Shown: positions 25,906 to 59,838, counted from the first letter of the stretch. The stretch is 64,000 bases of DNA from an uncultured Chloroflexota bacterium (GCA_937879875.1 CALFMN010000021.1:65249-129248); one strand, 5' to 3'. The notes: a model not told the origin generated them from the sequence alone. Numbers and translations are program-made.

Positions 25906-25990
25906 ACGTTGCCAGCGCCGCGCTGTGCTGGCTATGCTCGCGCTGGCACAAGATCATTCGGAGCCGTTCCCTGCGCCGTGAGGCCGCGCG

Positions 25991-28807
25991 ATGGCCGAAC
26001 TGCCGACTGGCACGCTCACCTTTCTCTTCACCGACGTGGAGGGCAGCACGCGCCTGTGGGAGCGGCACCCGCAGGCGATGCGCCGGATCATGGCCCGTCA
26101 CGACGCGCTGCTGACCCAATGCTTCGAACAACACAAAGGTGTCGTCGTGCGCCCGCGTGGGGAGGGCGACTCGCTGTTCGCCGTCTTCATGCGGGCGAGC
26201 GATGCCGTCACCGCGGCACTCGAAGGGCAGCGCGTGCTGCTTACAGAGGATTGGGGCGCGATCGGGCCGCTGCGGGTGCGCATGGGCTTGCACACGGGCG
26301 AGGCGGACCTGCGCGCGGGGGACTACTACGGCAGCGCCGTGAATCGCTGCGCCCGCATCCGCGCCGCCGGCCACGGCGGCCAGGTGCTGCTCTCCGAGGC
26401 GACGGCGAAGCTCGTGCGCGAAACGCTGCCGGACGGCGCAACGCTGCTGGACCTCGGCCGGCACCGGCTGCGCGACCTGAGCGAGCCAGAGCAACTGTTC
26501 CAACTCATTGCCGCAGACCTCCCCGGCACGTTTCCACCGCTGAAGACGTTGGAGAGCCGGCCCAACAACCTGCCGCTGCAGCTCACCAGCTTCGTCGGTC
26601 GCGGGCGCGAGCTGGCCGAGCTTGCAAGCCTGCTGAAAACGGCGCGTTTGGTGACGCTCACTGGCCCCGGCGGCACCGGCAAAACGCGGTTGGCGCTGCA
26701 CGTCGCCGCTGGGCTGCTGGACGGCTTCTCCGATGGCGTGTTCTTTGTGGACCTGGCGTCGCTGCAGGATCCGGCGCTCGTGCCCGCGGCGGTCGCCCAG
26801 GCCCTCGGTGTCCAGGGCCTGCCGGAGGTGTCGGCCCGCGAGAGCGTGCTGCGCTTCCTCCGGGACAAACAGGTGCTGCTCGTGCTGGACAACTACGAGC
26901 ACCTGTTGGCAGCGGCTGAATTCGCAGCGGCGCTGCTTCAGGCGGCGCCGGCGGTGCGCCTCCTCGTGACGAGCCGCGCGCCGCTGCGGGTGACCGGCGA
27001 GCGGGAATATGCGGTTGCGCCCTTGCTGGCGCCGCAGGAGCGCGTGCACTCGGCAGCGGAGCTGGCGCAGAATCCGGCAGTGCAACTCTTCGTGCAGCGG
27101 GCACAGGCCGTGCGAGCCGACTTCGCGCTGAGCGATGCAAACGCCTCGACCGTGGCGGCCACCTGCGCACGGCTGGACGGCTTGCCGCTGGCGCTCGAAC
27201 TGGCGGCGGCGCGGATGCGTGCGTTGCCAGTGGCAGCGCTGCTGGCGCGATTGGAGCAGCGCTTGCCGATCTTGACGGGCGGCGCACGGGACGTGCCGGC
27301 GCGCCAGCAGACGTTGCGGGACGCGATCGCCTGGAGCTACGCCCTGCTTGAGCCGGCGGAGCAGCGCTTGTTCCGACGGGTTGGCGTGTTTGCCGGCGGC
27401 TGTACGCTGGCGTTGGCGGAGGCCGTCTGCACCGCCGACGGCGACCTCGGCCTCGACGTGCTGGACGGCGTCGGTTCGCTGGTGGAGAAGAGCCTGCTGC
27501 GCGAAGTCGACGGCCAGGCGGGAGAGCCCCGCTACCGCATGTTGGAGACCATCCGCGAGTTTGCCCTCGGGGAGCTTGAGGCCCATGGCGAAGCGGAGGC
27601 TGTACGGCGGCACCTGGCGGTGCAGGTGTTACAGCTGGTCCGACAGGCCGCCGTGGCGGGTGCCCAGGAGCGCCTGGACGTCGACCTGGATAATGCCCGG
27701 ACCGTGCTGGGGTGGTGCGTCGAACACATGGAGTTGGCGGTGGGGGTGCGATTGTTCTGGGCGTTGCGCTGGTATCTGCACTACCGTGGACTCGGAAAGG
27801 AGCTCAACCTGTGGCGCCAGCGCCTCCTCGCCCTGCCGGACGCCTCGGCGCCGAGCGTTTCTCGGGCGCGGCTGCTTGGAATCACGCTGTTTGACCCGCT
27901 CTCCCTCGCCGAACAGGAGCGCGCGGTGCTTGAGCTCGAGGAAGCCATTGGCCTCAGTCGTGCCCTGGGCGACGCGTCCTGCCTCGCCGATGCGCTCCAA
28001 CACCTTGCGGTGCTGCGGATGAGTCAGGGCCGGTTTGACGCGCTGGTGCCGCCGGCAGAAGAAGCGCTCCCGCTGTATCTCGCAGCGGGAGCGCCACAGG
28101 CCGCTGCCTCTATGCAGCTCTTCCTGGTTCATGCCGCGCTTTCCCGCGGCGATATCGCCACCGCAGAAGCGCTGGTCGCGGCCAATCGGGCGCTCGAGGG
28201 CACGAAACGCTCGTCGCCCGGCCTATCAGCGGAGTCCGCGCTCGCAGAGGCGCACGGCGACCATGGGCGGGCGCGGGTGTTCCTGGAGGAGTCGGCTCGA
28301 GCGGCGGCCGCGTTACAGGGGGAGCAGAGCCCTGACAGACTGGCCCGCCTCGCCATGCTCGTGCAGGTCACCCTGCGCCAAGGGGACACGCGGGGCGCGG
28401 TGGCACGCTGCACCGAGAGTCTCGCCGTGGAACGCCGTGTGGGGCCCTCGCGCTTTCTGGCGGCGGTCTTGACGGTGCTCGCCCAGGCGGCGGAGCGCTG
28501 TGGCCGGCTGCCCGCCAGCGCACGGCTGTTGGCCGCCGTCGACGGGCAACGGCGAACGTTCGCCGTGGAGGTGCCGGGCGTGCAGGAGGCGCAGCAGGCG
28601 GCGGTGGCGCGGGTGCGGGTCGCGCTGGGCGAGGCGGCGTTCGCCGAAGCGTGGGCGGTGGGCGAGGCGCTTGCTCCGGAGGAAGCCATCGAGCTTGGCC
28701 TGGCTGTTGCCGGGGAGCTGGCGGCCGGCCCAGCGGCCCTCATCCTCACCCCCGTCCCCTCTCCTTCTCCCAATCCTGGAGAGAAGGAAAGGGGCGATCC
28801 GGCGTGA
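25991..28807 (+). CDS. Signal-transduction protein: class III adenylate/guanylate cyclase domain + STAND (NB-ARC/AAA) NTPase + TPR-like repeats
   Basis: N-terminus LTFLFTDVEGSTRLWE...GDS.FAVF...R.G.HTGE (CHD cyclase). Walker A GPGGTGKTRLAL. hhhhDN Walker B (LLVLDNYEH). Helical repeat C-terminus. The last about 20 codons are encoded by a family-2 repeat. Confidence 0.85.
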   Translation: MAELPTGTLTFLFTDVEGSTRLWERHPQAMRRIMARHDALLTQCFEQHKGVVVRPRGEGDSLFAVFMRASDAVTAALEGQRVLLTEDWGAIGPLRVRMGLHTGEADLRAGDYYGSAVNRCARIRAAGHGGQVLLSEATAKLVRETLPDGATLLDLGRHRLRDLSEPEQLFQLIAADLPGTFPPLKTLESRPNNLPLQLTSFVGRGRELAELASLLKTARLVTLTGPGGTGKTRLALHVAAGLLDGFSDGVFFVDLASLQDPALVPAAVAQALGVQGLPEVSARESVLRFLRDKQVLLVLDNYEHLLAAAEFAAALLQAAPAVRLLVTSRAPLRVTGEREYAVAPLLAPQERVHSAAELAQNPAVQLFVQRAQAVRADFALSDANASTVAATCARLDGLPLALELAAARMRALPVAALLARLEQRLPILTGGARDVPARQQTLRDAIAWSYALLEPAEQRLFRRVGVFAGGCTLALAEAVCTADGDLGLDVLDGVGSLVEKSLLREVDGQAGEPRYRMLETIREFALGELEAHGEAEAVRRHLAVQVLQLVRQAAVAGAQERLDVDLDNARTVLGWCVEHMELAVGVRLFWALRWYLHYRGLGKELNLWRQRLLALPDASAPSVSRARLLGITLFDPLSLAEQERAVLELEEAIGLSRALGDASCLADALQHLAVLRMSQGRFDALVPPAEEALPLYLAAGAPQAAASMQLFLVHAALSRGDIATAEALVAANRALEGTKRSSPGLSAESALAEAHGDHGRARVFLEESARAAAALQGEQSPDRLARLAMLVQVTLRQGDTRGAVARCTESLAVERRVGPSRFLAAVLTVLAQAAERCGRLPASARLLAAVDGQRRTFAVEVPGVQEAQQAAVARVRVALGEAAFAEAWAVGEALAPEEAIELGLAVAGELAAGPAALILTPVPSPSPNPGEKERGDPA
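28742..28805. repeat. Family-2 repeat, solo hairpin arm (cccgtcccctctccttctcccaatcctggagagaaggaaaggggcgatcc)
   Basis: Overlaps the 3' end of CDS 25991..28807. Confidence 0.6.
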
Positions 28808-38029: not shown

Positions 38030-39805
38030 GGTGAAGGCGAGCCGGTGACGCTAGCGACGTGATGCCAACCACGATCGACGCCGCTGACCTCCTACCCACT
38101 GGCTCGTAGTTCCGTGTCGAGGCGCTGAGCCGCACGGCGGACGCGAGCACCCTGCCCCTCACCAGTCCCCAACCGACCGCGGCCTGCCTGCGGTGCCGCG
38201 CGCCCTCGGCCGCCGTCCATAGTCGCTACCAACGCACGCTCGCCGACCTGCTCTGGGTCCGCCTACCCGTACGCCTCGACCTCCACGTCCGCAAGTTCTT
38301 CTGCCGCGTCTCCACCTGTACGCGGCAGATCTTCACCGAGCGGCTCCCCACGCTCGTTGCCCCCTCTGCGCGGCGCACGCTGGGCCTGACCGCAGCGCTC
38401 TGGCTGGTGGCGCTGGCCCCTGGTGGCGCAGCGGGCGCCCGGGTCGTCGCCGGGTTGGTGATGGGCACGAGCCCTGACACCTTGCTGCGGCTCATTCAGA
38501 CCGCGCCAATCAGCAACCGCGAGCCGACCCGCGTGCTGGGCATCGATGATTGGTCCTGGCGCCGCGGCCTGCGCTTCGGGACGATCCTCGTCGACCTCGA
38601 ACGGCATTGCCCGGTGGACCTCCTGCCCGATCGTGCGGTCGAGCCCATCGTGGCATGGCTGAAGGCGCATCCCGGTATTGAAGTCATCAGCCGCGACCGC
38701 GCCCAGTGCTACGCCGAGGCGGCCAGGCAAGGGGCACCGGATGCCGTGCAGGTCGCCGACCGCTGGCATCTCCTCAAGAATCTGGCGGAGGCGCTGGAGC
38801 GCTGCCTGCTGCGCGCTGCCAGCAGCCGGAAAGTGGCCGCCCAGCACACCGCCGACCGCGACCCGCCGCTCCAGAGTTACCCGGACGCGGACTGCGTCCC
38901 CTGGGAACAGCGGGCCGAGGAGGCCAGCCAGGCGAAGCACCAGGCAGCCGTGGAGCGCTATCAGCGCATCCGCAGCCTGCATGCCGCCGGGGCCGACATC
39001 GCCGACATCGCCCGCACCGTCGGCGTCTCCCGCGTCACGGTGTATCGCTATCTCCGGCTCACGGCGCTTCCTGAACGAAAACATTCCCGCTGCCGGCGGC
39101 CAGTGCTGGACCCCTACAAGGACTACCTGCTGCGCCGCTGGGAGGAGGGCTGCCACGTCAAACTCACCCTCTTCCGCGAAATTCAGGCGCAGGGCTATGC
39201 CTTCTCGGCGACGAACGTCTTCCGCTTCCTCAACCGGACGGCGCGAGCGCGGAGCCGCGACCCGGTCCAGGTCGTCCCACCCCCGGCCAGCGCCGTGCCC
39301 ACGGCGCGCCAGGTCGCCGGACTGTTCGTCGCCCGGCCCGAGCGGCTGGCGAAGGACGACCGGGCCTCTCTCACGCGCTTGACGGCTGGGGAGCCGAGCC
39401 TGGCAATGGCGTATGCCCTCACCCAGGCGTTCGGCCGCATGCTGCGCGAGCGTCAGGGCGAGCAGCTCGATGACTGGCTCACGCAGGCGAAAGCGAGCGG
39501 GGTGAAGGAGCTGGCCGCCTATGCCTGCGGCCTGGAAGCGGACGAGGCGGCGGTCACGGCGGGGCTGACGCTCGCCTGGAGCAACGGCCAGACCGAGGGC
39601 CACGTCCATCGCCTGAAGTTGCTCAAGCGCCAGAGCTACGGTCGCGCCGGCTTCGATCTCCTGCGCCGGCGCGTCCTGCTCGCTGCGTGAGCGATCAGCG
39701 CAGGCGCGACGCGGTTGACCGTTGCCTGCTCACCGCGATTCACCAAAAGACCGGAAGACCCAGCATCATTTGGCGAGGTGTGCAACGCCGCTCGCTCTTC
39801 GCCCT
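38030..39805 (+). mobile_element. ISL3-family insertion sequence; transposase 38062..39690 carries an in-frame TAG at codon 16 (38107-38109)
   Basis: MPTTIDAADLLPTGS*FRVEAL...PTAACLRCRAPSAAVHSRYQRTLADL (zinc-finger N-terminus) ...LGIDDWSWRRGLRFGTILVDLERHCPVDLLPDR...W.NGQTEGHVHRLKLLKRQSYGRAGFDLLRRRVL (ISL3 C-terminus). Imperfect terminal IRs GGTGAAGGCGAGCCGG (38030) / CCGCTCGCTCTTCGCC (39788). Confidence 0.75.
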
Positions 39806-42577: not shown

Positions 42578-44128
42578 CTACTGGGTGACGGGTGACGTCG
42601 TCACAACCGTCTTCCAGGGGCCGGCGGGAACGTTCTGCGCATCGATGAACTGCCAGTCGACGTGGTCGTTGTCGCCGTCGAGTTCCGCGTAGCCCAGGCA
42701 GCCGTTCAATGCGGGGCTGACATCGAGGCCGGCGTCGTTGAACTGACCCTGGACAGGACGGGCATCCGTGCTGCCGAAGACGTAGGTTGCGTCATGGTAG
42801 AGGCTGCCGTGCGACGGTCCGGCGTCCTCGATCTGGCCGTAGCAGGTGTGGCCGTTGGGACCGACGATCTCGACCCAGTGGTTCTTCATGTAGCTGAAGT
42901 TGCCGTCGGAGCAGTGGGCGCCGGTCGGGTCGAGCTGCGTTGCCCACGGTATCACCTGGCAGCGCTCGGCGAAGGCGGTCGGGTCGTTGAGATCATCGAA
43001 AGGGAGATCGAGATAGAACGGATTTTCATGCGGTGTGGCGTGTGTGGGGAAGTAGCCGTTCGTCGCGCTGCGCGCTTCGGTCTGGCATGTGAACATGGCA
43101 AGGGTCGTGCCAGAAGGAACGCCATCACAGCCGCCCACGGGCGAGCCGGTGCAGCCGGTGTCCGGAGAGGGCCCCATGTTTATGCCGCCCGACCAGTGCA
43201 TGGCCCACTGGCTGTCGTATGCGCTGCACACCTGGCTGCCATCGCTCAGGCTGGCATTGAAGATCTCGCCCACCCAGAATGTCGTGCTGACGATGTTCGT
43301 ATGCCACGGATAGCCGCCCGATGCAGGGCTCGGACTCGGCGACGGGGTTGGCGTCGGGGTCGGGCTGGGGCTCGGACTTGGCGTTGGGGTTGGGGTGTGC
43401 GTCGGCGTGGCCGTCACCGTGGGCGGTTGCGTGGCAACTGCCGTTGCCGTGGCCGTCGGCGGTTTGGTCGGGGCCGCCGTCGCGGTTGTAGTCGGTGAAC
43501 TGGTCGCCGAGGGCGGGGCAGACGCCGTGGCTGTGGCCAGCAGCGGCGTACTGCCCGCGGTGAGTGCGATCTGATCGACGTACATCGGCGGCTCGGCCTT
43601 GCCGCTCTCGTCCTGGATGATGATGCCGCCCACCGTCTTGTTCACGCCGCCGAGGGCGCTGAGCGGGATGCTGTAGAGCTTCCATGAGCCGGCGATCGGC
43701 TGGCCGCCGTAGGTGCTGTTCAGCTTCACCACCGGGCCGAGTGGATTGTCATGCACATCTTCGAGCACGACCGAGACCGCCTGCCCGGCTTGCGTCGCCT
43801 CCAAGGCGAAGCTGAGGTTCGCGAAGGGGCTGCTGCTCACGCCGGTGTCGCTATGCAGATAGAGGCCGCCCCACGCCGCCTTCACCGTCCAGGAGATCGC
43901 CTTCGTGCCACTGTAGACCGGGGCGGAGACGCCGTAGTTGACGCTGGAGTCCCAGGACCAGTTCACCCAGCCAGGCGCCAGCGCATCGCCGTAGGCCATG
44001 AAACTTGTGGTCGAGGCCGAGGCCGTGACCCCGGAGCCGCCGGCGCGGGCGCCGAACAGCGCCGCGCCCACCGCCGCCGCCACGACCGCGGTCGCGCCGA
44101 CGTTCCGTAAAACCGACCCGCCACGCAT
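42578..44128 (-). CDS. Secreted protein: signal peptide + about 160-aa beta-sandwich-like module + Pro/Thr/Ser linker + uncharacterised Cys-rich C-terminal domain
   Basis: GGAGGA RBS before ATG 44128. N-terminal module YGDALAPGWVNWSWDSSVNYG..YSGTKAISWTVKAAWGGLYL... is homologous to the 4x repeated module of 44576..47773. Linker [24 protein letters not shown]-terminal domain has 8 Cys. Confidence 0.75.
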   Translation of the reverse strand: MRGGSVLRNVGATAVVAAAVGAALFGARAGGSGVTASASTTSFMAYGDALAPGWVNWSWDSSVNYGVSAPVYSGTKAISWTVKAAWGGLYLHSDTGVSSSPFANLSFALEATQAGQAVSVVLEDVHDNPLGPVVKLNSTYGGQPIAGSWKLYSIPLSALGGVNKTVGGIIIQDESGKAEPPMYVDQIALTAGSTPLLATATASAPPSATSSPTTTATAAPTKPPTATATAVATQPPTVTATPTHTPTPTPSPSPSPTPTPTPSPSPSPASGGYPWHTNIVSTTFWVGEIFNASLSDGSQVCSAYDSQWAMHWSGGINMGPSPDTGCTGSPVGGCDGVPSGTTLAMFTCQTEARSATNGYFPTHATPHENPFYLDLPFDDLNDPTAFAERCQVIPWATQLDPTGAHCSDGNFSYMKNHWVEIVGPNGHTCYGQIEDAGPSHGSLYHDATYVFGSTDARPVQGQFNDAGLDVSPALNGCLGYAELDGDNDHVDWQFIDAQNVPAGPWKTVVTTSPVTQ

Positions 44129-44575
44129 GAAGCTTCCTCCTCGGCGGTCGTGCCACCGCCGCCATGGCCCGACAGCGGCTGAACAGACCGTGAGGAGGTC
44201 TGCGCCTTCGGCAACCCGGCTGCCTGTGCCGTTCCGCTGGCGTGCCGCCAGGGAAACGACCGAAGGCCCGTGGCTTTGCGTCCCCGCCTTTCGGCGGGTT
44301 TGCCTTTGTCGGACGTTCTGTAAAGCGACCCGGCAGCCGGTGCTACCTGTGGTCCAGGTGCAGTAATCGCGTGGCCGCGGGTGCTGCAAGAGGGTTGCCG
44401 GACAGTGGTGGGCCGGGCGTTACTGAAATGTTACAACCGGCAAACGGACCATCGGCCCGCCGGCAGAGGTCTTCCGCGGACAAACGAATCGGCCCGAAGC
44501 CCGGTGACGGGCTTCGGGCCGGCGCCGTTGCCAGCGTTACGGCGAGAGCAGGTCCGTGGAGAGGGCGCTGGCCTG

Positions 44576-47500
44576 CTACTTGAACTGGATGTCGTCGATA
44601 TAGACGGCTGGCTGCGCCGCGCCCAGCGCATCCTGGAAGACGATGCCCATAATCGTCTGTCCGGTACCGTTTAGATCGGACAGCGGGATGGTGTACTGCG
44701 TCCACGAGCCGGTTGCGGGCTGGCCGCCGTAGTTGGCGAGCGATACCAGCTTAATCATGGTGTTGGTAGGATCCACCAGCGAGACATCGTAGGCCTGGCC
44801 GGACTGTGACGCCTGCGCCCAGAAGCTGAGCGAGGTGTAGCCCGCCAGGTTCAGGTTGTTCCAGGTCCATGGGTAGAGCGCGCCCCATGCTGCCGTAATC
44901 GTCGCCGAGATCGAGTGCGTGCCGCTGTGCACAGGGCTGGTGTTGGCGTAGTTGACGGTCGCGTTCCAGGATGAATCGCCCCAGCCGGTTGCCTCTGCGT
45001 CATCGTACACAACAAACGTCGGGATCGCGGTGGGACTCGGCGTCGGGCTCGGCGTCGGGCTCGGCGTGGGGCTCGGCGTCGGCGTCGGGCTTGGCGTCGG
45101 GCTTGGTGTTGGCGTCGGCGTGGCGGCCGGTGTGTTGTCGAACTTGATGTCGTCCAGGTAGACGGCCGGCTGCGCCTTGCCCAGCGCGTCCTGAATAACG
45201 AAGCCCTGAATCTGCTTGCCCACGCCGTTCAGGTCGGTGAGCGGGATGATGTACTGCTTCCACGAGCCGGTTACGGGCTGGCCGCCGTAACCGGTGAGCG
45301 ACACCGACTTGATCATCGTGTTGGTCGTGTCCACCAGGCTGGCGGCGTAGGCCTCTCCTGAGGCGCTGGCCTGTGCCCAGAACTGCAGGTTGGTGAACGG
45401 CGTCGTGTTGAGCGGCGGGGCGGTGGAGGCATAGAAAGCGCCCCACGCCGCCGTCACCGTCAGCGAGATCGAGTCGGTACCCGTGTGCACGGGGCTGGTG
45501 TTCAGCAAGTTCGTCGAGGCGCTCCACGACGAGTTCGCCCAGCCGGGAGCCAGGTGGTCGTCGTAGACGGTCAGCTTGCCGGGCGTGTTGGGCGTGGGCG
45601 TAGGAGTACTGATCGCCGGGCTGGTCAGGGCGACATCGTCGATGTAGACGTTGGACTGGGTCTTGCCAAGTGCATCCTGCAGGACGATGCCCGTGATCTG
45701 CTGATGGTTCGGGTTCAGGTCAGAGAGCGGTACCGTGTACTGCTTCCAGGCGGTGCTGACCGGCTGGAAGCCGTAGTCAGCCAGCGTAAGCAGCGGCATC
45801 TGGCGGTTGAGCTGGTCGACGAGGCCGATGTCGTACGCCTGGCCGGACTGGCTGGCCTTCAGCCAGAAGCTGAGCGCGGTGTATGGCGACGGGTCGATCG
45901 GCAGGCCGTCGTACAGATAGAGCGCCCCCCAGGCGGCTTTGATGTTCATCGAGATCGACTTCGTGCCGGCGTGCACCGGGCTGGTGTTGGCGAAGTTGAT
46001 CCCCGCGTTCCAGGACTCATTGCCGAAGAGGCCGTTCACGGCGTCGTCAAAGATCGTCAGCGTACCCGGCGTCGGGTTTGGCGTTGGCGTGGGCTTCGCG
46101 TTGCAGTTCGACAGCGGCGTGGCGGCCGTTGCGATGAACGCGTCGAGAATGTTGGTGGTGACCTTCTGCAGCGCTGCGCTGACGGTGTGCGCCTGGTACG
46201 TGTTGCTGTCGAGCTTCCAGGCCCAGTAGATCGTGCCCGCGTTGAAGACGTAGGCGCCGCTGCACGCCGTGTAAATGGTGGAGTTCGACGTGTCGGCGTT
46301 GTTCCACGCGTCTTTGGTGGGCGAGTTGGAGAGCACGGTCAGATTCTGCGGCTGCAGGCCGTTGGGATAGACCTTGTCCCACTCGTAACCGACGACGCCG
46401 GTGACCTTGGAACCGTTGGCTAGGCCGCTGCCGGTGAAGACCCAGTTGCTGGCGTTGCTCACCACCCAGGGGAAGGCGGGGTCGGTTGTGGTGTAAGCAG
46501 GGCTGTACATGCCGCCGAGGAAGGCGTTTTCGGGCTGGCTGACGGGCGACTGGCGCCATTGCACGGTCGTGAGCCCGGGTGTGGCGGCTTCGACCGGATC
46601 CTGTGTCGCATCGCGGTAGCAGACGATCACGCGGTTGGCGACGCCCGCGGCGTTCGCTTCCCAGCGGATCTGCCAGTACATGGAGTTGGCATCGAAGAAA
46701 GCGAGGTGTACGCCGGCATCGCGCGCCGCGATGATGTTGGTGCGCATCTGCTGCGACCAGTACTCGTCGTGCCACGGTGAGATGAAGGCCTTATGGCCCG
46801 AGAGCAGCGAGGGGTTGGTCTGCACGTCGGTGCTGGTGACGTAGGTGATGTTGTAGTTCTTCGACTCGATGAAGCGAATGAAGCCGTAGTCGCCGTCGAA
46901 GAGGTCGCCGGCGCCGGCGTAGTCGGAGTACGGCCGGTCAAAGGAGGCCTTGACTGCCTGTGGGCCGGTCGAGTTGAAGGCGTACAGACTCTTGCCGCCC
47001 CAGTTGTTGTACGCCTGGTAGGTGGCGACCGGCAGCTCGTACACCAGCGGCGCCGTGCTGCTGTCGTCGCGCACCACGAAGATCAGGTAGCCGACATCGC
47101 TGCTTGCCGCGGTCAGCTTGACCAGGTAGACGCCCGTGGTCCAGGCGGTGGTGGTTTGCAGGGTGTAGGAGACCTGCCAGTTGGTGGCGATCAGGCCAGT
47201 CGTCGGGTCCGGCGTGGGCACGGCCTGGTTTTGGCCCGTCAGGTTGGCCACTGAGGTGACGAGGGTAGAGCCGGCCCCCGCGTACCAGCCGATGCGGTAG
47301 ACATCAAGATTGTAGGTCGGCTGGGCCGTGCTGACGTAAAAGGAGACCGCATCGCCGTGGTTGATGCTCGTGGCGGAGGCGTAGCCGCGGATCACCTGGT
47401 CGGTCCAGCAGTCGGTGCCGCAGGTGGAAGCGTCGACCGCGTCGTACTCCGCATCGCTGGCGCTGTCCTTGCCGGGCTTGTGCGGGTTCGCCTTCGGCGC

Positions 47501-47773
47501 CTTGTCGATCTCGTCATCCTGGTCATTCAGGTGACGGCCGCGACCCCTGTCAAGCTCCTTGGAGCCGAAGTTCGTCGTGCCGGGCTTGAGATTCTCGTCG
47601 TGAATCGGGTTGGACTCGTTGTGCGGCTTGAGCTGGGGCGCTGGGCCGGAACCCGGGGTACCGGCGGCTACCTGACTGCTGCCCGAAGCGCCGGCAAAGG
47701 CGATGCCAACGGCGATCAAGCAGAACAGGAGTCCGAGGGCATGAACAGGCCGGAGTCGCGCAAAGATCTTCAC
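44576..47773 (-). CDS. Large secreted multidomain protein: signal peptide, about 500-aa N-terminal domain (possibly DmfA2/N,N-dimethylformamidase-large-subunit-like), then 3 tandem about 165-aa modules separated by Pro/Thr linkers
   Basis: GTG 47773 preceded by GAGGTG. Signal peptide [28 protein letters not shown]-terminal domain carries [13 protein letters not shown]. Modules share ..DD...GW.NSSWNA..N.ANTSPVH.GT.SIS....AAWGALY... Linkers [10 protein letters not shown] / [10 protein letters not shown] / (PTPS)n. Confidence 0.8.
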
Positions 47774-48397
47774 AGCGGAGCACCTCACACAATACCTACA
47801 AAACGCGGCGAGCTACCAAATTTTGCTCATCTCCCATCTGATGAAGCCCGGGGCCGGGCGCGCGGCGCCTCGCATGGGATGCTTGTTACAGGTTCTTCGA
47901 ACCTTAACCGAATGTCAACCGTGAAGTGTTGCAGGGGGATAACACTCCTGTTGCAGGTTTGGCAGATGTACATATGGTTGCGTCGGTTGCCGCCGAAGCA
48001 CTCCCGCCGGCTCAGTGCGCGAGCGGGAACCTGGCCGCTTACTTCTCGCGGATTCTCTCTTTGCCGGCCGCCACACCGCCGCCGTCCGTGCCACCCGCCA
48101 GCGCCAGCACGGCGATCGTGACACCGGCCAGGAGCGCAAGCACAGAGAGCGGGCGGGGGCGATGCGATCGCTTCATGAGAAGGTACCTCTTGCGGTTCAC
48201 AATAGAAGAACGCTGCCGGTTACAAGATCGCCGCTACAAAAGGGCGTCGATGCGCCGACCCTACATTAGTATTGATAGAGATTCGCAGACTCTTAACCGA
48301 TTGTCAACGATGAGCGTTGCGACCGCGTAACGTTCTTCTTGCATAACGTGCGGCGGCGCCGGACGGCGGCAGGGTCTCGTCAAGCCCGGGCCCGTGG

Positions 48398-48640
48398 AGC
48401 TTGCGAGGCACCTAACCCTGACTTCCCTTGCGGGAAGTCTGTCCCTTCCCGAGGCGGGAAAGGGACTTTTGGAGCGCTCCCGACAACGCCGGACGGCGGC
48501 GGGGTCTGGGTGTCCCTGTGGGACACGCGGCGGGCTGGCCTCCCAGCCCTATGTGCGTCCTCGAACCCCACCCTTCCCGGCTCGGGAAGGGACAGACCTG
48601 GCTTCAGCCAGGTCAGGGTTAGGTGCCGCGCGCGGCGAAC
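48398..48640. repeat. MITE-like interspersed repeat, family 1, full copy B
   Basis: Starts cacctaaccctga and ends tcagggttaggtgcc. The internal sequence aligns with copy A (3597-3836), including hairpins gtcccttcccgaggcgggaaagggac and cccttcccggctcgggaaggg. Confidence 0.8.
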
Positions 48641-58232: not shown

Positions 58233-58625
58233 TTAGTGCGCGTGCGCCAGCTCGGGCGCGACGAGGTGCTCTTCAAGATGCGTGGCCGGCTCGCCGGGGA
58301 ATGTCTCGCTCGAACCGGGCTTCGGCAGCGATCGCAGCACGGAGTCGAGCAGGCCGGGAAAGCGGGTGTCGAGGTCATCGCAGCGCAGGGCATACAGCCG
58401 CGTCGTGCCTTCGACACGAACCGAGACGATCCCTGCCTGCCGCAGCACCTTCAGGTGGTGTGAGAGCGTCGGCTTGGGGATGGGAATGCCCAGCTCGCCG
58501 CAGGGCCGCAGGCTGGTTTGCAGCGCAAGCTGCTGCACCACGCGCAGACGCACCGGATCGCTCAGCGCATACAGCACGTCGGTCAGCGAGAGATGTTCGC
58601 AAGCAGGATGGAACAGCGTTCGCAT
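58233..58625 (-). CDS. ArsR/SmtB family transcriptional regulator
   Basis: LSDPVRLRVVQQLA...LSHHLKVLRQAGIV. Confidence 0.8.
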   Translation of the reverse strand: MRTLFHPACEHLSLTDVLYALSDPVRLRVVQQLALQTSLRPCGELGIPIPKPTLSHHLKVLRQAGIVSVRVEGTTRLYALRCDDLDTRFPGLLDSVLRSLPKPGSSETFPGEPATHLEEHLVAPELAHAH

Positions 58626-58872
58626 GCCTGCATTCTGGCACGTTACCTCGCGTTCCTCAAATATGCCCGTCCTACGCAGTGCCGCCCGCCCGTTCTGGAG
58701 TCACGAAATGGTAACGACTCGCCGGTCGCGCGATCCGCGCAACGCCGCCGGGCGTACCCCGATCAGGACGATCCCTTCAGCCCTCGATCCGCGCGCCGAT
58801 AACTCATGCGTAGCGCCGCAGAACCGCGGGACGCCAGGGCGGCCGGAATCCTGCTCTCCGGGAGTACCAGCC

Positions 58873-59838
58873 GTGAACCAGTTCAGCCAGGACGCCGGCC
58901 AGCCTCCGGCCGCGCCGAGCGGCGGCGCCGATCTCTTCACCGTGTGGGCGACCAGCACCCTGATCGGCGTCTACATCGTGCAAGACGGCGTCTTCGCGTG
59001 GGTCAACGAGACCTTTCGCCGCGACCTCGGCTACGAGGCGGGGGCGCTGGTTGGACGCGCGCCCCTGACGCTGATCCACGCGGACGATCGCCTGCTCGCC
59101 CATACGGCCGCGGTGCGCATGTTGCACGGCACGCTGCGCACGCCGTACGAGTTCCGCTATCTCACCCACGGCGGCGACGTGCGCTGGGCGCTGGAGACGG
59201 TGGCCTCGATTCCGTTCCACGGCCGGCGGGCGGTGCTCGGCAACTTCATGGACATCACGGCGCGCAAAGACGCCGAAGCGCAGCTGGCCCACCAGGCCTT
59301 TCACGACCCGCTGACCGATCTGCCCAACCGCGCCCTGTTCATGGAGCGGCTGACACGCGCCCTCACCCGGCGCGAGCGCCATCCCGGCGAAGCAGCCGTG
59401 CTCTACCTCGACCTCGACGGCTTCAAGGCGGTGAACGACTCGCTTGGCCATCACGCCGGCGACCAACTGCTCACGGCCGTCGCGCGTCGGCTGAGCGGCA
59501 GCGTTCGCCCGAGCGACACCGTTGCCCGCCTGGGCGGCGATGAGTTCGCGGTACTGCTGGAGGACATGCAGGCGCCGGCACATGCGCTGCGCGTCGCCGA
59601 AGACCTGATCGCCGCGCTGCGCGAGCCCTTCATCGTCACCGGCCACCAGGTCGCGGTGACGAGCAGCGCCGGGGTCACGGTGAGCCGGCCGCTGGTCGCC
59701 TCGCCGGAAGGGCTGCTGCGCGAGGCCGACGCGGCGCTGTATCTCGCCAAGGCGCGGGGCAAAGCCTGCGCCGTGCTCGCCGTGCCAGACGCGATCCGCA
59801 CCGCCCGTCCGGAGCTGAGCGAGATCCCGGCCGCGTAG
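58873..59838 (+). CDS. PAS-GGDEF diguanylate cyclase
   Basis: GTG 58873. PAS-like N-terminus. ...HDPLTDLPNRALF... and GGDEF motif LGGDEFAVLL. The ORF-track start at 58282 is in a long GC-shadow frame. Confidence 0.8.
   Translation: MNQFSQDAGQPPAAPSGGADLFTVWATSTLIGVYIVQDGVFAWVNETFRRDLGYEAGALVGRAPLTLIHADDRLLAHTAAVRMLHGTLRTPYEFRYLTHGGDVRWALETVASIPFHGRRAVLGNFMDITARKDAEAQLAHQAFHDPLTDLPNRALFMERLTRALTRRERHPGEAAVLYLDLDGFKAVNDSLGHHAGDQLLTAVARRLSGSVRPSDTVARLGGDEFAVLLEDMQAPAHALRVAEDLIAALREPFIVTGHQVAVTSSAGVTVSRPLVASPEGLLREADAALYLAKARGKACAVLAVPDAIRTARPELSEIPAA

Follow-up and report, generated by a model that had tools for sequence, protein, structure and literature searches.

We analyzed a 64,000-nt stretch of DNA from an uncultured Chloroflexota bacterium (GCA_937879875.1, CALFMN010000021.1:65249-129248; this whole stretch is referred to here as the window) and found that two neighboring genes on its minus strand, A and B, encode apparently secreted modular proteins that share a repeated family 8 carbohydrate-binding module (CBM8), present once in A and three times in B. 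B also carries a domain of the dimethylformamidase (DMFase) family, A ends in an undescribed domain with eight cysteines that has a predicted double-psi beta-barrel (DPBB) core, and gene A is preceded by a cyclic di-GMP (c-di-GMP) riboswitch. We are close to certain of the domain architectures and family assignments, and we consider it quite likely that both proteins are glycan-targeted secreted enzymes. Our favored interpretation, held at a little short of even confidence, is that A and B form a glycan-tethered enzyme pair, B being a probable deacylase and A expansin- or RlpA-like, tied to biofilm or exopolysaccharide biology. The two genes and their parts are as follows.

42578-44128, minus strand: gene A, ATG start; predicted secreted protein of 516 aa (signal peptide, one CBM8, Pro-Thr-Ser linker, eight-cysteine DPBB-like domain)
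43556-44008, minus strand: CBM8 module of A (aa 41-191), with the full canonical binding pattern W-W-W-W-Q (NWSW...AAWG...QD)
43322-43555, minus strand: Pro/Thr/Ser/Ala linker of A (aa 192-269), from composition
42581-43321, minus strand: C-terminal 247-aa eight-cysteine domain of A (aa 270-516), an undescribed conserved family with a predicted DPBB core
44576-47773, minus strand: gene B, GTG start; predicted secreted modular protein of 1065 aa (signal peptide, spacer, DMFase-like domain, three CBM8)
47690-47773, minus strand: signal-peptide-like N terminus of B (aa 1-28), with a basic n-region, a hydrophobic core (Kyte-Doolittle 2.74) and an AFA/AGA site, called heuristically
47399-47689, minus strand: low-complexity charged spacer of B (aa 29-125), which holds the subfamily's conserved N-terminal NPI..EN..PGT motif (consensus of 26 homologs)
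46139-47398, minus strand: catalytic region of B (aa 126-545), with PF20254 and a putative Fe site
46064-46138 and 45578-45619, minus strand: shorter Pro-Thr linkers of B, from sequence
45620-46063, minus strand: CBM8 copy 1 of B (aa 571-718), pattern F-E-W-W-Q, without an equivalent of W572 (numbering explained below)
45134-45577, minus strand: CBM8 copy 2 of B (aa 733-880), pattern W-S-W-W-Q
45020-45133, minus strand: longest Pro-Thr-Ser linker of B (aa 881-918), from sequence
44579-45019, minus strand: CBM8 copy 3 of B (aa 919-1065), pattern W-S-W-W-Q; the copy modeled with AlphaFold

Both reading frames have a coding-type codon composition (GC3 of 0.82 and 0.87 and GC2 of 0.59 and 0.51 for A and B, respectively), and the same 516-aa and 1065-aa proteins were called independently by the JGI annotation on two metagenome contigs containing this stretch. 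The N termini look like Sec-type export leaders; by heuristic criteria each combines a basic n-region with a hydrophobic core of 15 aa (Kyte-Doolittle 2.1 and 2.7) and with AxA-type sites. An earlier sequence-only reading of this DNA had described the proteins as likely extracellular and polymer-directed, with Pro-Thr-Ser linkers between their modules. The first of these views is supported, and the second is confirmed by composition: the linker of A, taken as aa 191-269, has 22 P, 23 T, 11 S and 15 A among its 79 residues.

The same reading had placed one copy of the module at the N terminus of A and three in tandem in B, and had taken it to be a carbohydrate-binding-type beta-sandwich of unassigned family. 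BLASTP reproduced the four copies, and their boundaries were refined. The ~148-aa copies have pairwise identities of 39%-66% (E from 1e-37 to 6e-67), far beyond chance, and share 38 invariant alignment columns; a search with the last 160 residues of B recovered the other two copies of that protein (64%, E=2e-66; 56%, E=1e-56) as well as the one in A (45%, E=4e-40). A four-copy profile strongly matched a single solved structure in the PDB, 7T7Y/7T7Z ("Endoglucanase"; E=1.2e-13). With 14 relatives added, the resulting 18-sequence profile aligned to residues 5-150 of the 154 in 7T7Y at E=3.8e-25, the next chain being a Meiothermus endoglucanase (7VT4, E=6e-4). An AlphaFold (AF2) model of B copy 3 (pLDDT 98.2) also had 7T7Y as its first-ranked Foldseek match in the PDB (TM 0.85/0.81, rmsd 2.0 Å), with CBM11, CBM29, CBM22 and a mannanase CBM as runners-up at TM ≤0.66. 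The structure is that of DdCBM8, the family 8 module of Dictyostelium CelA, which was solved and mutagenized in 2022 (Liberato et al., PMC9079177), and full-length pairwise identity between the module and DdCBM8 is 25%-30% (BLASTP E from 1e-8 to 4e-12). The beta-sandwich was therefore borne out by both the profile match and the model, and the "unassigned" label was not: the module is a divergent bacterial CBM8 and no new family. It had looked unassignable because Pfam lacks a CBM8 model and returns nothing beyond borderline scores for CBM30 (27.3 bits, cut-off 27) and CBM11 (25.8 bits). We dropped a CBM30/CBM11 assignment, as these scores are only at threshold level, and also discarded NCBIfam matches on A and B (internalin, SslE, TonB) as low-complexity linker artifacts.

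DdCBM8 binds cellulose, beta-glucan, glucomannan and xyloglucan and has a ligand platform formed by W572, W574, Y600 and Q686; the W572A and Y600A mutations abolish binding, and Q686A weakens it (PMC9079177). By HMM alignment, all four copies have the equivalents of W574 (the invariant W of (N/D)xSW), Y600 (the invariant W of AAWG) and Q686 (the invariant Q of QD). The equivalent of W572 is a W only in the A copy (NWSW) and is E, S and S in B copies 1-3, so that four of four platform residues are retained in A and three of four in each copy of B. A word-indexed homolog search with the module returned just 25 short fragments, and an exhaustive profile search was needed. Among 1.84 billion cluster representatives, it found 5902 proteins at E≤1e-3 (1006 at E≤1e-30) with up to nine copies per protein; for comparison, CAZy membership of CBM8 stood at 109 in 2022, of which 99 were bacterial. 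Over 368 module instances the platform positions were W in 58%, W in 77%, aromatic in 81% and Q in 62%, and the commonest pattern was WWWWQ, that of A. The three copies in B are the nearest relatives of one another, which indicates intragenic duplication, and the A copy resembles those of B less (39%-46%) than it resembles modules from other proteins (70% and 53%).

The partner domains found in the 54 top module proteins were GH44 (15; GH, glycoside hydrolase), GH6 (2), GH5, GH113, CE4, M23 and others, a spectrum that fits the cellulose, beta-glucan, glucomannan and xyloglucan specificity of DdCBM8. Both the specificity and the occurrence of the module family mainly on plant-wall hydrolases (GH44, GH6, GH5, GH113) are arguments for nutrient acquisition, in which A and B would be directed at exogenous polymers of plant or fungal cell walls (cellulose, hemicellulose, chitin) and not at the cell's own matrix: CBM8 would target beta-1,4-glycans, B would strip acetyl and other acyl groups, and A would act in the manner of expansin, swollenin or GH45. 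CBM8-like modules were also seen alongside M23 peptidase, tyrosinase, lysyl oxidase and PQQ glucose/sorbosone dehydrogenase domains, and some proteins carry four to nine tandem modules without a recognizable catalytic domain (P0146 has nine copies in 1490 aa).

The N-terminal half of B belongs to PF20254 (DMFA2_C), as the sequence-only reading had proposed from the motif YQAYNNWGG. The Pfam match covers B aa 156-526 (nt 46196-47308) and positions 2-372 of the 374-position model at E=2.7e-108 (363 bits against a cut-off of 27), and the motif (aa 252-260) lies within it. A 26-sequence profile retrieved the DMFase large subunit (6LVB) and N-acetyl-(R)-beta-phenylalanine acylase (8HUY) from the PDB, both at E=3e-21. 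In DMFase the ligands of the mononuclear Fe(III) are Y399, Y440 and E521, and H519 is close by (PMC7686228). Aligned to 6LVB, the corresponding residues in B are Y255 (in YQAY), Y264 (in KSLY), E337 and H335 (both in WHDEYW); all four are invariant across the 26 homologs. A 36-aa insert that separates the two tyrosine ligands in DmfA2 is missing from B. B is thus a member of the PF20254 family whose catalytic center is apparently intact and which is not a DMFase ortholog. A literature search on PF20254/DUF6605 and on secreted DMFase-like proteins returned nothing on function.

The invariant ligands bear on another view of the pair, that the modules and the "enzyme" domains do nothing more than bind polymers or surfaces, A and B being non-catalytic matrix scaffolds or adhesins of the c-di-GMP-regulated kind. 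This is suggested by the riboswitch control of gene A, by the multivalent modules (including the proteins with up to nine copies and no recognizable enzyme domain) and by the existence of non-enzymatic DPBB proteins such as expansin, cerato-platanin and kiwellin. We regard it as very unlikely, given that B and 25 homologs retain the DMFase metal ligands without exception and that the C-terminal domain of A is 55%-77% identical across several Actinomycetota orders, with sporadic occurrences in other phyla; such conservation suggests a constrained active or recognition site.

The closest relatives of B (45%-67% identity) come mostly from Chloroflexota metagenome bins. CBM8-like modules are present in 13 of the 120 closest homologs, and other relatives are fused to CBM3, dockerin, a mannanase galactose-binding-like domain, LamG, TIG or fn3; the CBM3, dockerin and mannanase-type fusions count in favor of an exogenous target. 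The gene neighborhoods point the other way. P0190, which is 50% identical to B and combines a DMFA2_C domain with two CBM8 modules, is encoded between a UDP-glucose dehydrogenase (UGDH) gene and a gene for a PgaC/IcaA-like family 2 glycosyltransferase (GT2) (locus L003), and two loci (L107, 6570-16776; L121, 3169-13375) have the order Bac_transf, three tandem DMFA2_C paralogs, UDP-N-acetylglucosamine (UDP-GlcNAc) 2-epimerase, GT2. Bac_transf, an initiating sugar transferase, was the most frequent of the 99 immediate neighbors of B-like genes at 79 metagenome loci (six cases), followed by GT1 (three), UDP-GlcNAc 2-epimerase (two) and Acyl_transf_3 (two). Considering how few B-type genes a genome has, polysaccharide-synthesis neighbors appear strongly enriched, and the position of B-like genes within Bac_transf/glycosyltransferase operons argues against nutrient acquisition. 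Labels from an in-house "DMFA2C" HMM were discounted because many of the full-length homologs from which it was built carry a C-terminal module, so that module-only proteins matched as well; Pfam, BLAST and tblastn anchors were used instead. At the locus of the closest relative (P0293, 67% identical; L004, 6001-10181), a 557-aa DMFA2_C gene is followed after 20 nt by a separate TIG/fn3 gene with two CBM8-like modules, an arrangement that is either a split version of the B architecture or a frameshift.

The C-terminal domain of A contains exactly eight cysteines (positions 301, 326, 334, 348, 390, 406, 429 and 477), the number counted in the sequence-only reading, and each is invariant or at least 90% conserved in 30 homologs. 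It also has invariant motifs, among them TTFWVGE, CYGQ[IV]EDAGP and GxDVSPALNGCLG. We collected 1386 homologs (55%-77% identity), all of them labeled "hypothetical." Occasional partner domains are CBM60, Big_7, PKD and dockerin, and CBM8 is found in none of the 120 closest homologs, which makes the architecture of A unusual within its family. The AF2 model of the domain (pLDDT 78.8, pTM 0.80) had DPBB proteins as its 13 best Foldseek matches in the PDB (kiwellin, PA4485, cerato-platanin and expansin, and including one phage baseplate entry), followed by p97-N domains and MltA. The classical DPBB signature is a strand with DxGP followed by a strand-helix-strand unit, and the motif order in the model agrees with it (strand-DxGP ... 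strand [GLDVS]-helix [PALNGCLG]-strand). The domain thus probably has a DPBB core, and it is moderately likely to be a DPBB glycan-acting domain. "Kunitz-like GGCxG" alignments in the PDB were rejected as chance matches. A layout of CBM, linker and DPBB domain is that of swollenin, GH45 and expansin, and together with the CBM60 and dockerin fusions of A-domain homologs it lends weight to nutrient acquisition.

MltA and the RlpA-like PA4485 among the fold matches bring to mind peptidoglycan enzymes. The A domain might be lytic-transglycosylase-like or peptidoglycan-binding (a DPBB of RlpA, MltA or YuiC type) and open the wall for polymer export or growth, with CBM8 and B only loosely related to this function. 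In line with this, a homolog in two Gaiellaceae loci (L006, L007) directly follows a YkuD L,D-transpeptidase gene, with an M23 peptidase gene nearby in L006, and some homologs are lipoprotein-like (a LAGC lipobox, in L067). The domain has no sequence-level similarity to RlpA, its fusions to CBM8, CBM60 and dockerin point to glycans other than peptidoglycan, and its dominant neighbors are GT2, family 4 carbohydrate esterases (CE4) and GH18, not peptidoglycan enzymes. We give this explanation only a slim chance.

A scan of one genome per GTDB species yielded 312 stretches encoding A-domain relatives, mostly in Actinomycetota (Arthrobacter, Pseudarthrobacter, Cryobacterium, Gaiellaceae, Solirubrobacterales, Nocardioides, Curtobacterium, Arsenicicoccus and Rhodococcus), with sporadic myxobacterial and caulobacterial occurrences and one in an archaeal bin. 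We counted neighbors within 5 kb at 78 GTDB loci, many of them from Arthrobacter and phylogenetically redundant. A membrane GT2, a distant relative of PgaC/IcaA, hyaluronan synthase (HAS) and NodC, was present at 42 of the 78, a CE4 deacetylase at 19, a GH18-like gene at 17, and UGDH and an NAD-epimerase at nine each. The genes can be closely packed. In a Mycobacteriales locus (L081, 477-5657) GH18, GT2, CE4 and the DPBB gene follow one another on one strand; the CE4 stop codon overlaps the DPBB start in two Arsenicicoccus loci (L082 and L085; L085, 2893-10453), as does the GH18 stop in an uncultured actinomycetotal locus (L084). The linkage was also seen in another uncultured member of the phylum (L067) and in Curtobacterium, Gaiellaceae and Rhodococcus, and a further example is L035 (4584-10375). 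This recurrent cluster of A-domain, GT2, CE4, GH18, UGDH and epimerase genes looks like an uncharacterized exopolysaccharide system of Actinomycetota. Its conserved members are biosynthetic (GT2, UGDH, epimerase) and not catabolic, which again speaks against nutrient acquisition. Two oddities turned up among the relatives. A Thermoplasmata metagenome-assembled genome (L021, 5001-5684) holds a 72%-identical copy of the otherwise bacterial eight-cysteine domain, which is either binning contamination or a recent transfer. An A-like fragment (P0124; L167, ~2020-2054) ends in ...CLLYTSPSPRDS, letters that we recognize as the Nextera adapter CTGTCTCTTATACACATCTCCGAGCCCACGAGAC translated in frame; the end of the contig appears to be adapter read-through and not protein.

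The 447-nt spacer between B and A holds a terminator-like hairpin and a riboswitch:

44490-44521, minus strand: terminator-like hairpin, a 14-bp stem with 12 G-C pairs, 55 nt after the B stop codon and followed by a weak U-tract
44206-44313, minus strand: c-di-GMP-I-GGC riboswitch aptamer (RF03167), in the 5' leader of gene A
44136-44198, minus strand: expression platform, with anti-Shine-Dalgarno CCUCCUC (44192-44198) and Shine-Dalgarno GAGGAGG (44136-44142)

With a gathering score of 59, RF03167 matched at 78.1 bits (E ~1e-17 to 6e-19, model positions 1-80 of 80) and was the sole Rfam match at gathering level in the window. The aptamer lies 78 nt upstream of the A ATG on the same strand. The anti-Shine-Dalgarno element follows it by 8 nt, and the Shine-Dalgarno sequence, a strong one, precedes the ATG by 7 nt; the two pair in both the minimum-free-energy and centroid folds (z=-3.9). 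By these predicted folds the helix is a translational expression platform, and its position before the ATG confirms the start codon of A. A PAS-GGDEF diguanylate cyclase gene in the window (58237-59838, plus strand) is a potential source of the ligand. A core-motif pattern search of 166 loci found the riboswitch only in the two JGI copies of this contig; it is lineage-specific. A sigma-70 promoter scan gave no match. The riboswitch, the likely fold of the eight-cysteine domain and the genomic company of that domain's family had all been missed in the sequence-only reading.

Put together, these observations suggest the following scheme for our favored glycan-tethered pair. The CBM8 modules would tether A and B to a beta-linked glycan, which could be cellulose-, beta-glucan- or glucomannan-like or a GlcNAc-containing exopolysaccharide. 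The B domain, as a metal-dependent amidohydrolase, would strip the tethering polymer of acyl groups (N-acetyl or N-formyl, possibly O-acetyl), making B a functional analog of CE4 polysaccharide deacetylases. The C-terminal DPBB of A, like expansins, GH45 and RlpA, would loosen or cleave glycan chains. Finally, c-di-GMP would couple synthesis of A to the sessile or biofilm state, on which basis the pair would most likely remodel an extracellular matrix polysaccharide. The analogy of B with CE4 draws on the chemistry of its family, on the fusion of the CBM8 module to CE4 elsewhere, and on operon positions next to UGDH/GT2 and Bac_transf/epimerase, where deacetylases usually sit. That B is specifically a polysaccharide deacylase remains, from these comparisons, a tentative proposal.

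We give about even odds that the target is the cell's own matrix polymer and somewhat lower odds that it is exogenous material. The family contexts and the riboswitch favor the cell's own matrix polymer, and the CBM8 partner spectrum and the CBM3 and dockerin fusions of B relatives favor an exogenous plant or fungal one. Riboswitches for c-di-GMP control a chitin-binding protein in Vibrio, which would suit nutrient acquisition too; against it, there are no GH, polysaccharide lyase or sugar-uptake genes around the pair. Overall, we see nutrient acquisition as a possible explanation about which we are doubtful. A bolder version of our preferred scheme, which we think improbable, is that B founds a new carbohydrate-active deacylase family (with two-Tyr/one-Glu Fe(III) centers, acting on N- or O-acetylated polysaccharides and replacing CE4 in some exopolysaccharide operons), that the A domain is a new DPBB enzyme family, overlooked until now and integral to a PgaC/HAS-like GT2-CE4-GH18 exopolysaccharide system of Actinomycetota, and that both were re-targeted here by CBM8, one of them under a c-di-GMP riboswitch.

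Several results weigh against the glycan-tethered pair or its parts. For B, alignment to DmfA2 extends only over residues 3-40 and ~339-766 of the ~770-aa large subunit, roughly residues 45-335 and the ~300-aa N-terminal domains being absent; no gene resembling the DMFase small subunit is adjacent; and PF20254 enzymes so far act on small soluble amides (dimethylformamide, N-acetyl-beta-Phe), not polymers. The B modules are without the equivalent of W572, the residue whose alanine mutant abolishes binding in DdCBM8, and an exopolysaccharide context was seen at only ~11-13 of 80 B-like loci, many of them on short contigs. For a DPBB fold in A, Pfam and NCBIfam searches with the domain gave no family at E≤1, single-sequence and 30-sequence profile searches of the PDB gave no match, hhalign of the domain profile against Escherichia coli RlpA gave nothing (probability 0.3%), and the Foldseek matches, which begin at E ~5e-3 and take in ~90 of 247 residues, are weak. 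As to context, the window holds no glycosyltransferase, CE4, GH18 or UGDH gene and no CAZyme or exopolysaccharide cluster, and among related loci we found no synteny of A-type and B-type genes outside this stretch. A scan of 27 related loci (13 DPBB and 14 DMFA2_C) and of the nearest A-like fragment detected no riboswitch, and c-di-GMP is the presumed ligand of the GGC variant here.

The genes around A and B form an unrelated metabolic and regulatory set: a 2-hydroxyacid dehydrogenase, a glyoxalase, a PD40 propeller protein, a MarR-like regulator, a TPR protein, a phosphonate-type ABC transporter and hydantoinases. An ISL3-family transposase gene lies on one side of the pair (38407-39690, plus strand), with further HTH/DDE_3 transposase genes on the same side (L001, 20613-21551). 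G+C content is 0.63-0.67 over 42-48 kb compared with ~0.70 elsewhere, and GC skew is strongly positive. From the transposases, G+C and skew, the A/B segment may have been horizontally acquired or rearranged. We also noted a 42-nt direct repeat (47883-47924 and 48272-48313; copies 74% identical) with a core, GTTGACA(A/T)TCGGTTAAG, that is exact in both copies, occurs nowhere else in the window and was found in 0 of 100 shuffles. One copy is upstream of gene B and the other upstream of a 45-aa open reading frame (48039-48176, minus strand; MKRSHRPRPLSVLALLAGVTIAVLALAGG...); the repeat may be a shared promoter or operator. The long non-coding region upstream of B further contains a 61-nt inverted repeat (48403-48463 / 48571-48631; 80% complementary, arms 107 nt apart), whose arms match the whalefall-1 RNA motif below threshold (30.3 and 25.4 bits against a gathering score of 37). 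Elsewhere in the window is a large gene for an adenylate/guanylate cyclase-NACHT/NB-ARC (STAND) protein (25982-28807, plus strand).

The repeated module is a known and sparsely studied family, and what it is attached to carries the value of this locus. CBM8 itself is very large in metagenomes (~5,900 clusters at 50% identity, some proteins having as many as nine copies) and contains a sub-branch without one of the two essential tryptophans. Neither a DMFase-like domain with three CBM8 modules nor CBM8 with a DPBB-like domain under a c-di-GMP riboswitch has been described in the searchable literature, and both catalytic-type domains are without a characterized secreted member. As a secreted, CBM-tethered member of the DMFase family with its iron-site residues intact, B may point to a natural, polymer-associated substrate for a family otherwise known from a man-made solvent and a synthetic amide, and it could reveal a new class of carbohydrate deacylases. 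A draws attention to a highly conserved, unannotated eight-cysteine family linked to GT2/CE4/GH18 loci in Arthrobacter and relatives, which are culturable and in which the link is testable. The riboswitch would give a direct regulatory link between A and biofilm physiology.

Each part of the pair has a counterpart among known systems. The modules share with DdCBM8 a ~150-aa beta-sandwich, an aromatic/Gln platform and attachment through Thr/Pro-rich linkers. DdCBM8 and most relatives carry NGGxSGxQ, whereas the copies in the window form a QASxSGQAY sub-branch, and DdCBM8 is joined to GH9, whereas the modules here are joined to DMFase-like and DPBB-like domains. B resembles DmfA2 (6LVB) and 8HUY in its PF20254 domain, in the two-Tyr-one-Glu Fe(III) ligands with an adjacent His, and in an N-terminal IRGY... 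beta-sandwich segment. Those enzymes are cytoplasmic and act on small amides; B, in contrast, has a predicted secretion leader and three fused CBMs.

The A domain is like expansin, swollenin, GH45, RlpA, kiwellin and cerato-platanin in its predicted DPBB core, with strand-DxGP and then xDxS-helix (xALxxxLG), and in being disulfide-rich and secreted. It differs in having no detectable sequence similarity to them, in its size, roughly double that of a minimal DPBB and including a low-confidence insert of ~90 residues, and in its own invariant motifs and eight cysteines. The riboswitch has the full-length aptamer, 5' leader position and ribosome-binding-site-sequestering helix of the c-di-GMP-I (GEMM-I) clan (CL00126), and here stands ahead of a gene for a CBM8-DPBB protein. 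Lastly, A-domain homologs cluster with a PgaC/IcaA/HAS-like GT2, a CE4, a GH18-like glycosidase and UGDH, as in loci of the poly-N-acetylglucosamine (PNAG) and hyaluronan type (pgaABCD, icaADBC, hasABC). The cluster genes score far below the equivalog cut-offs of those systems, and none of them is in the window; we know of no PNAG or hyaluronan locus with a DPBB protein.

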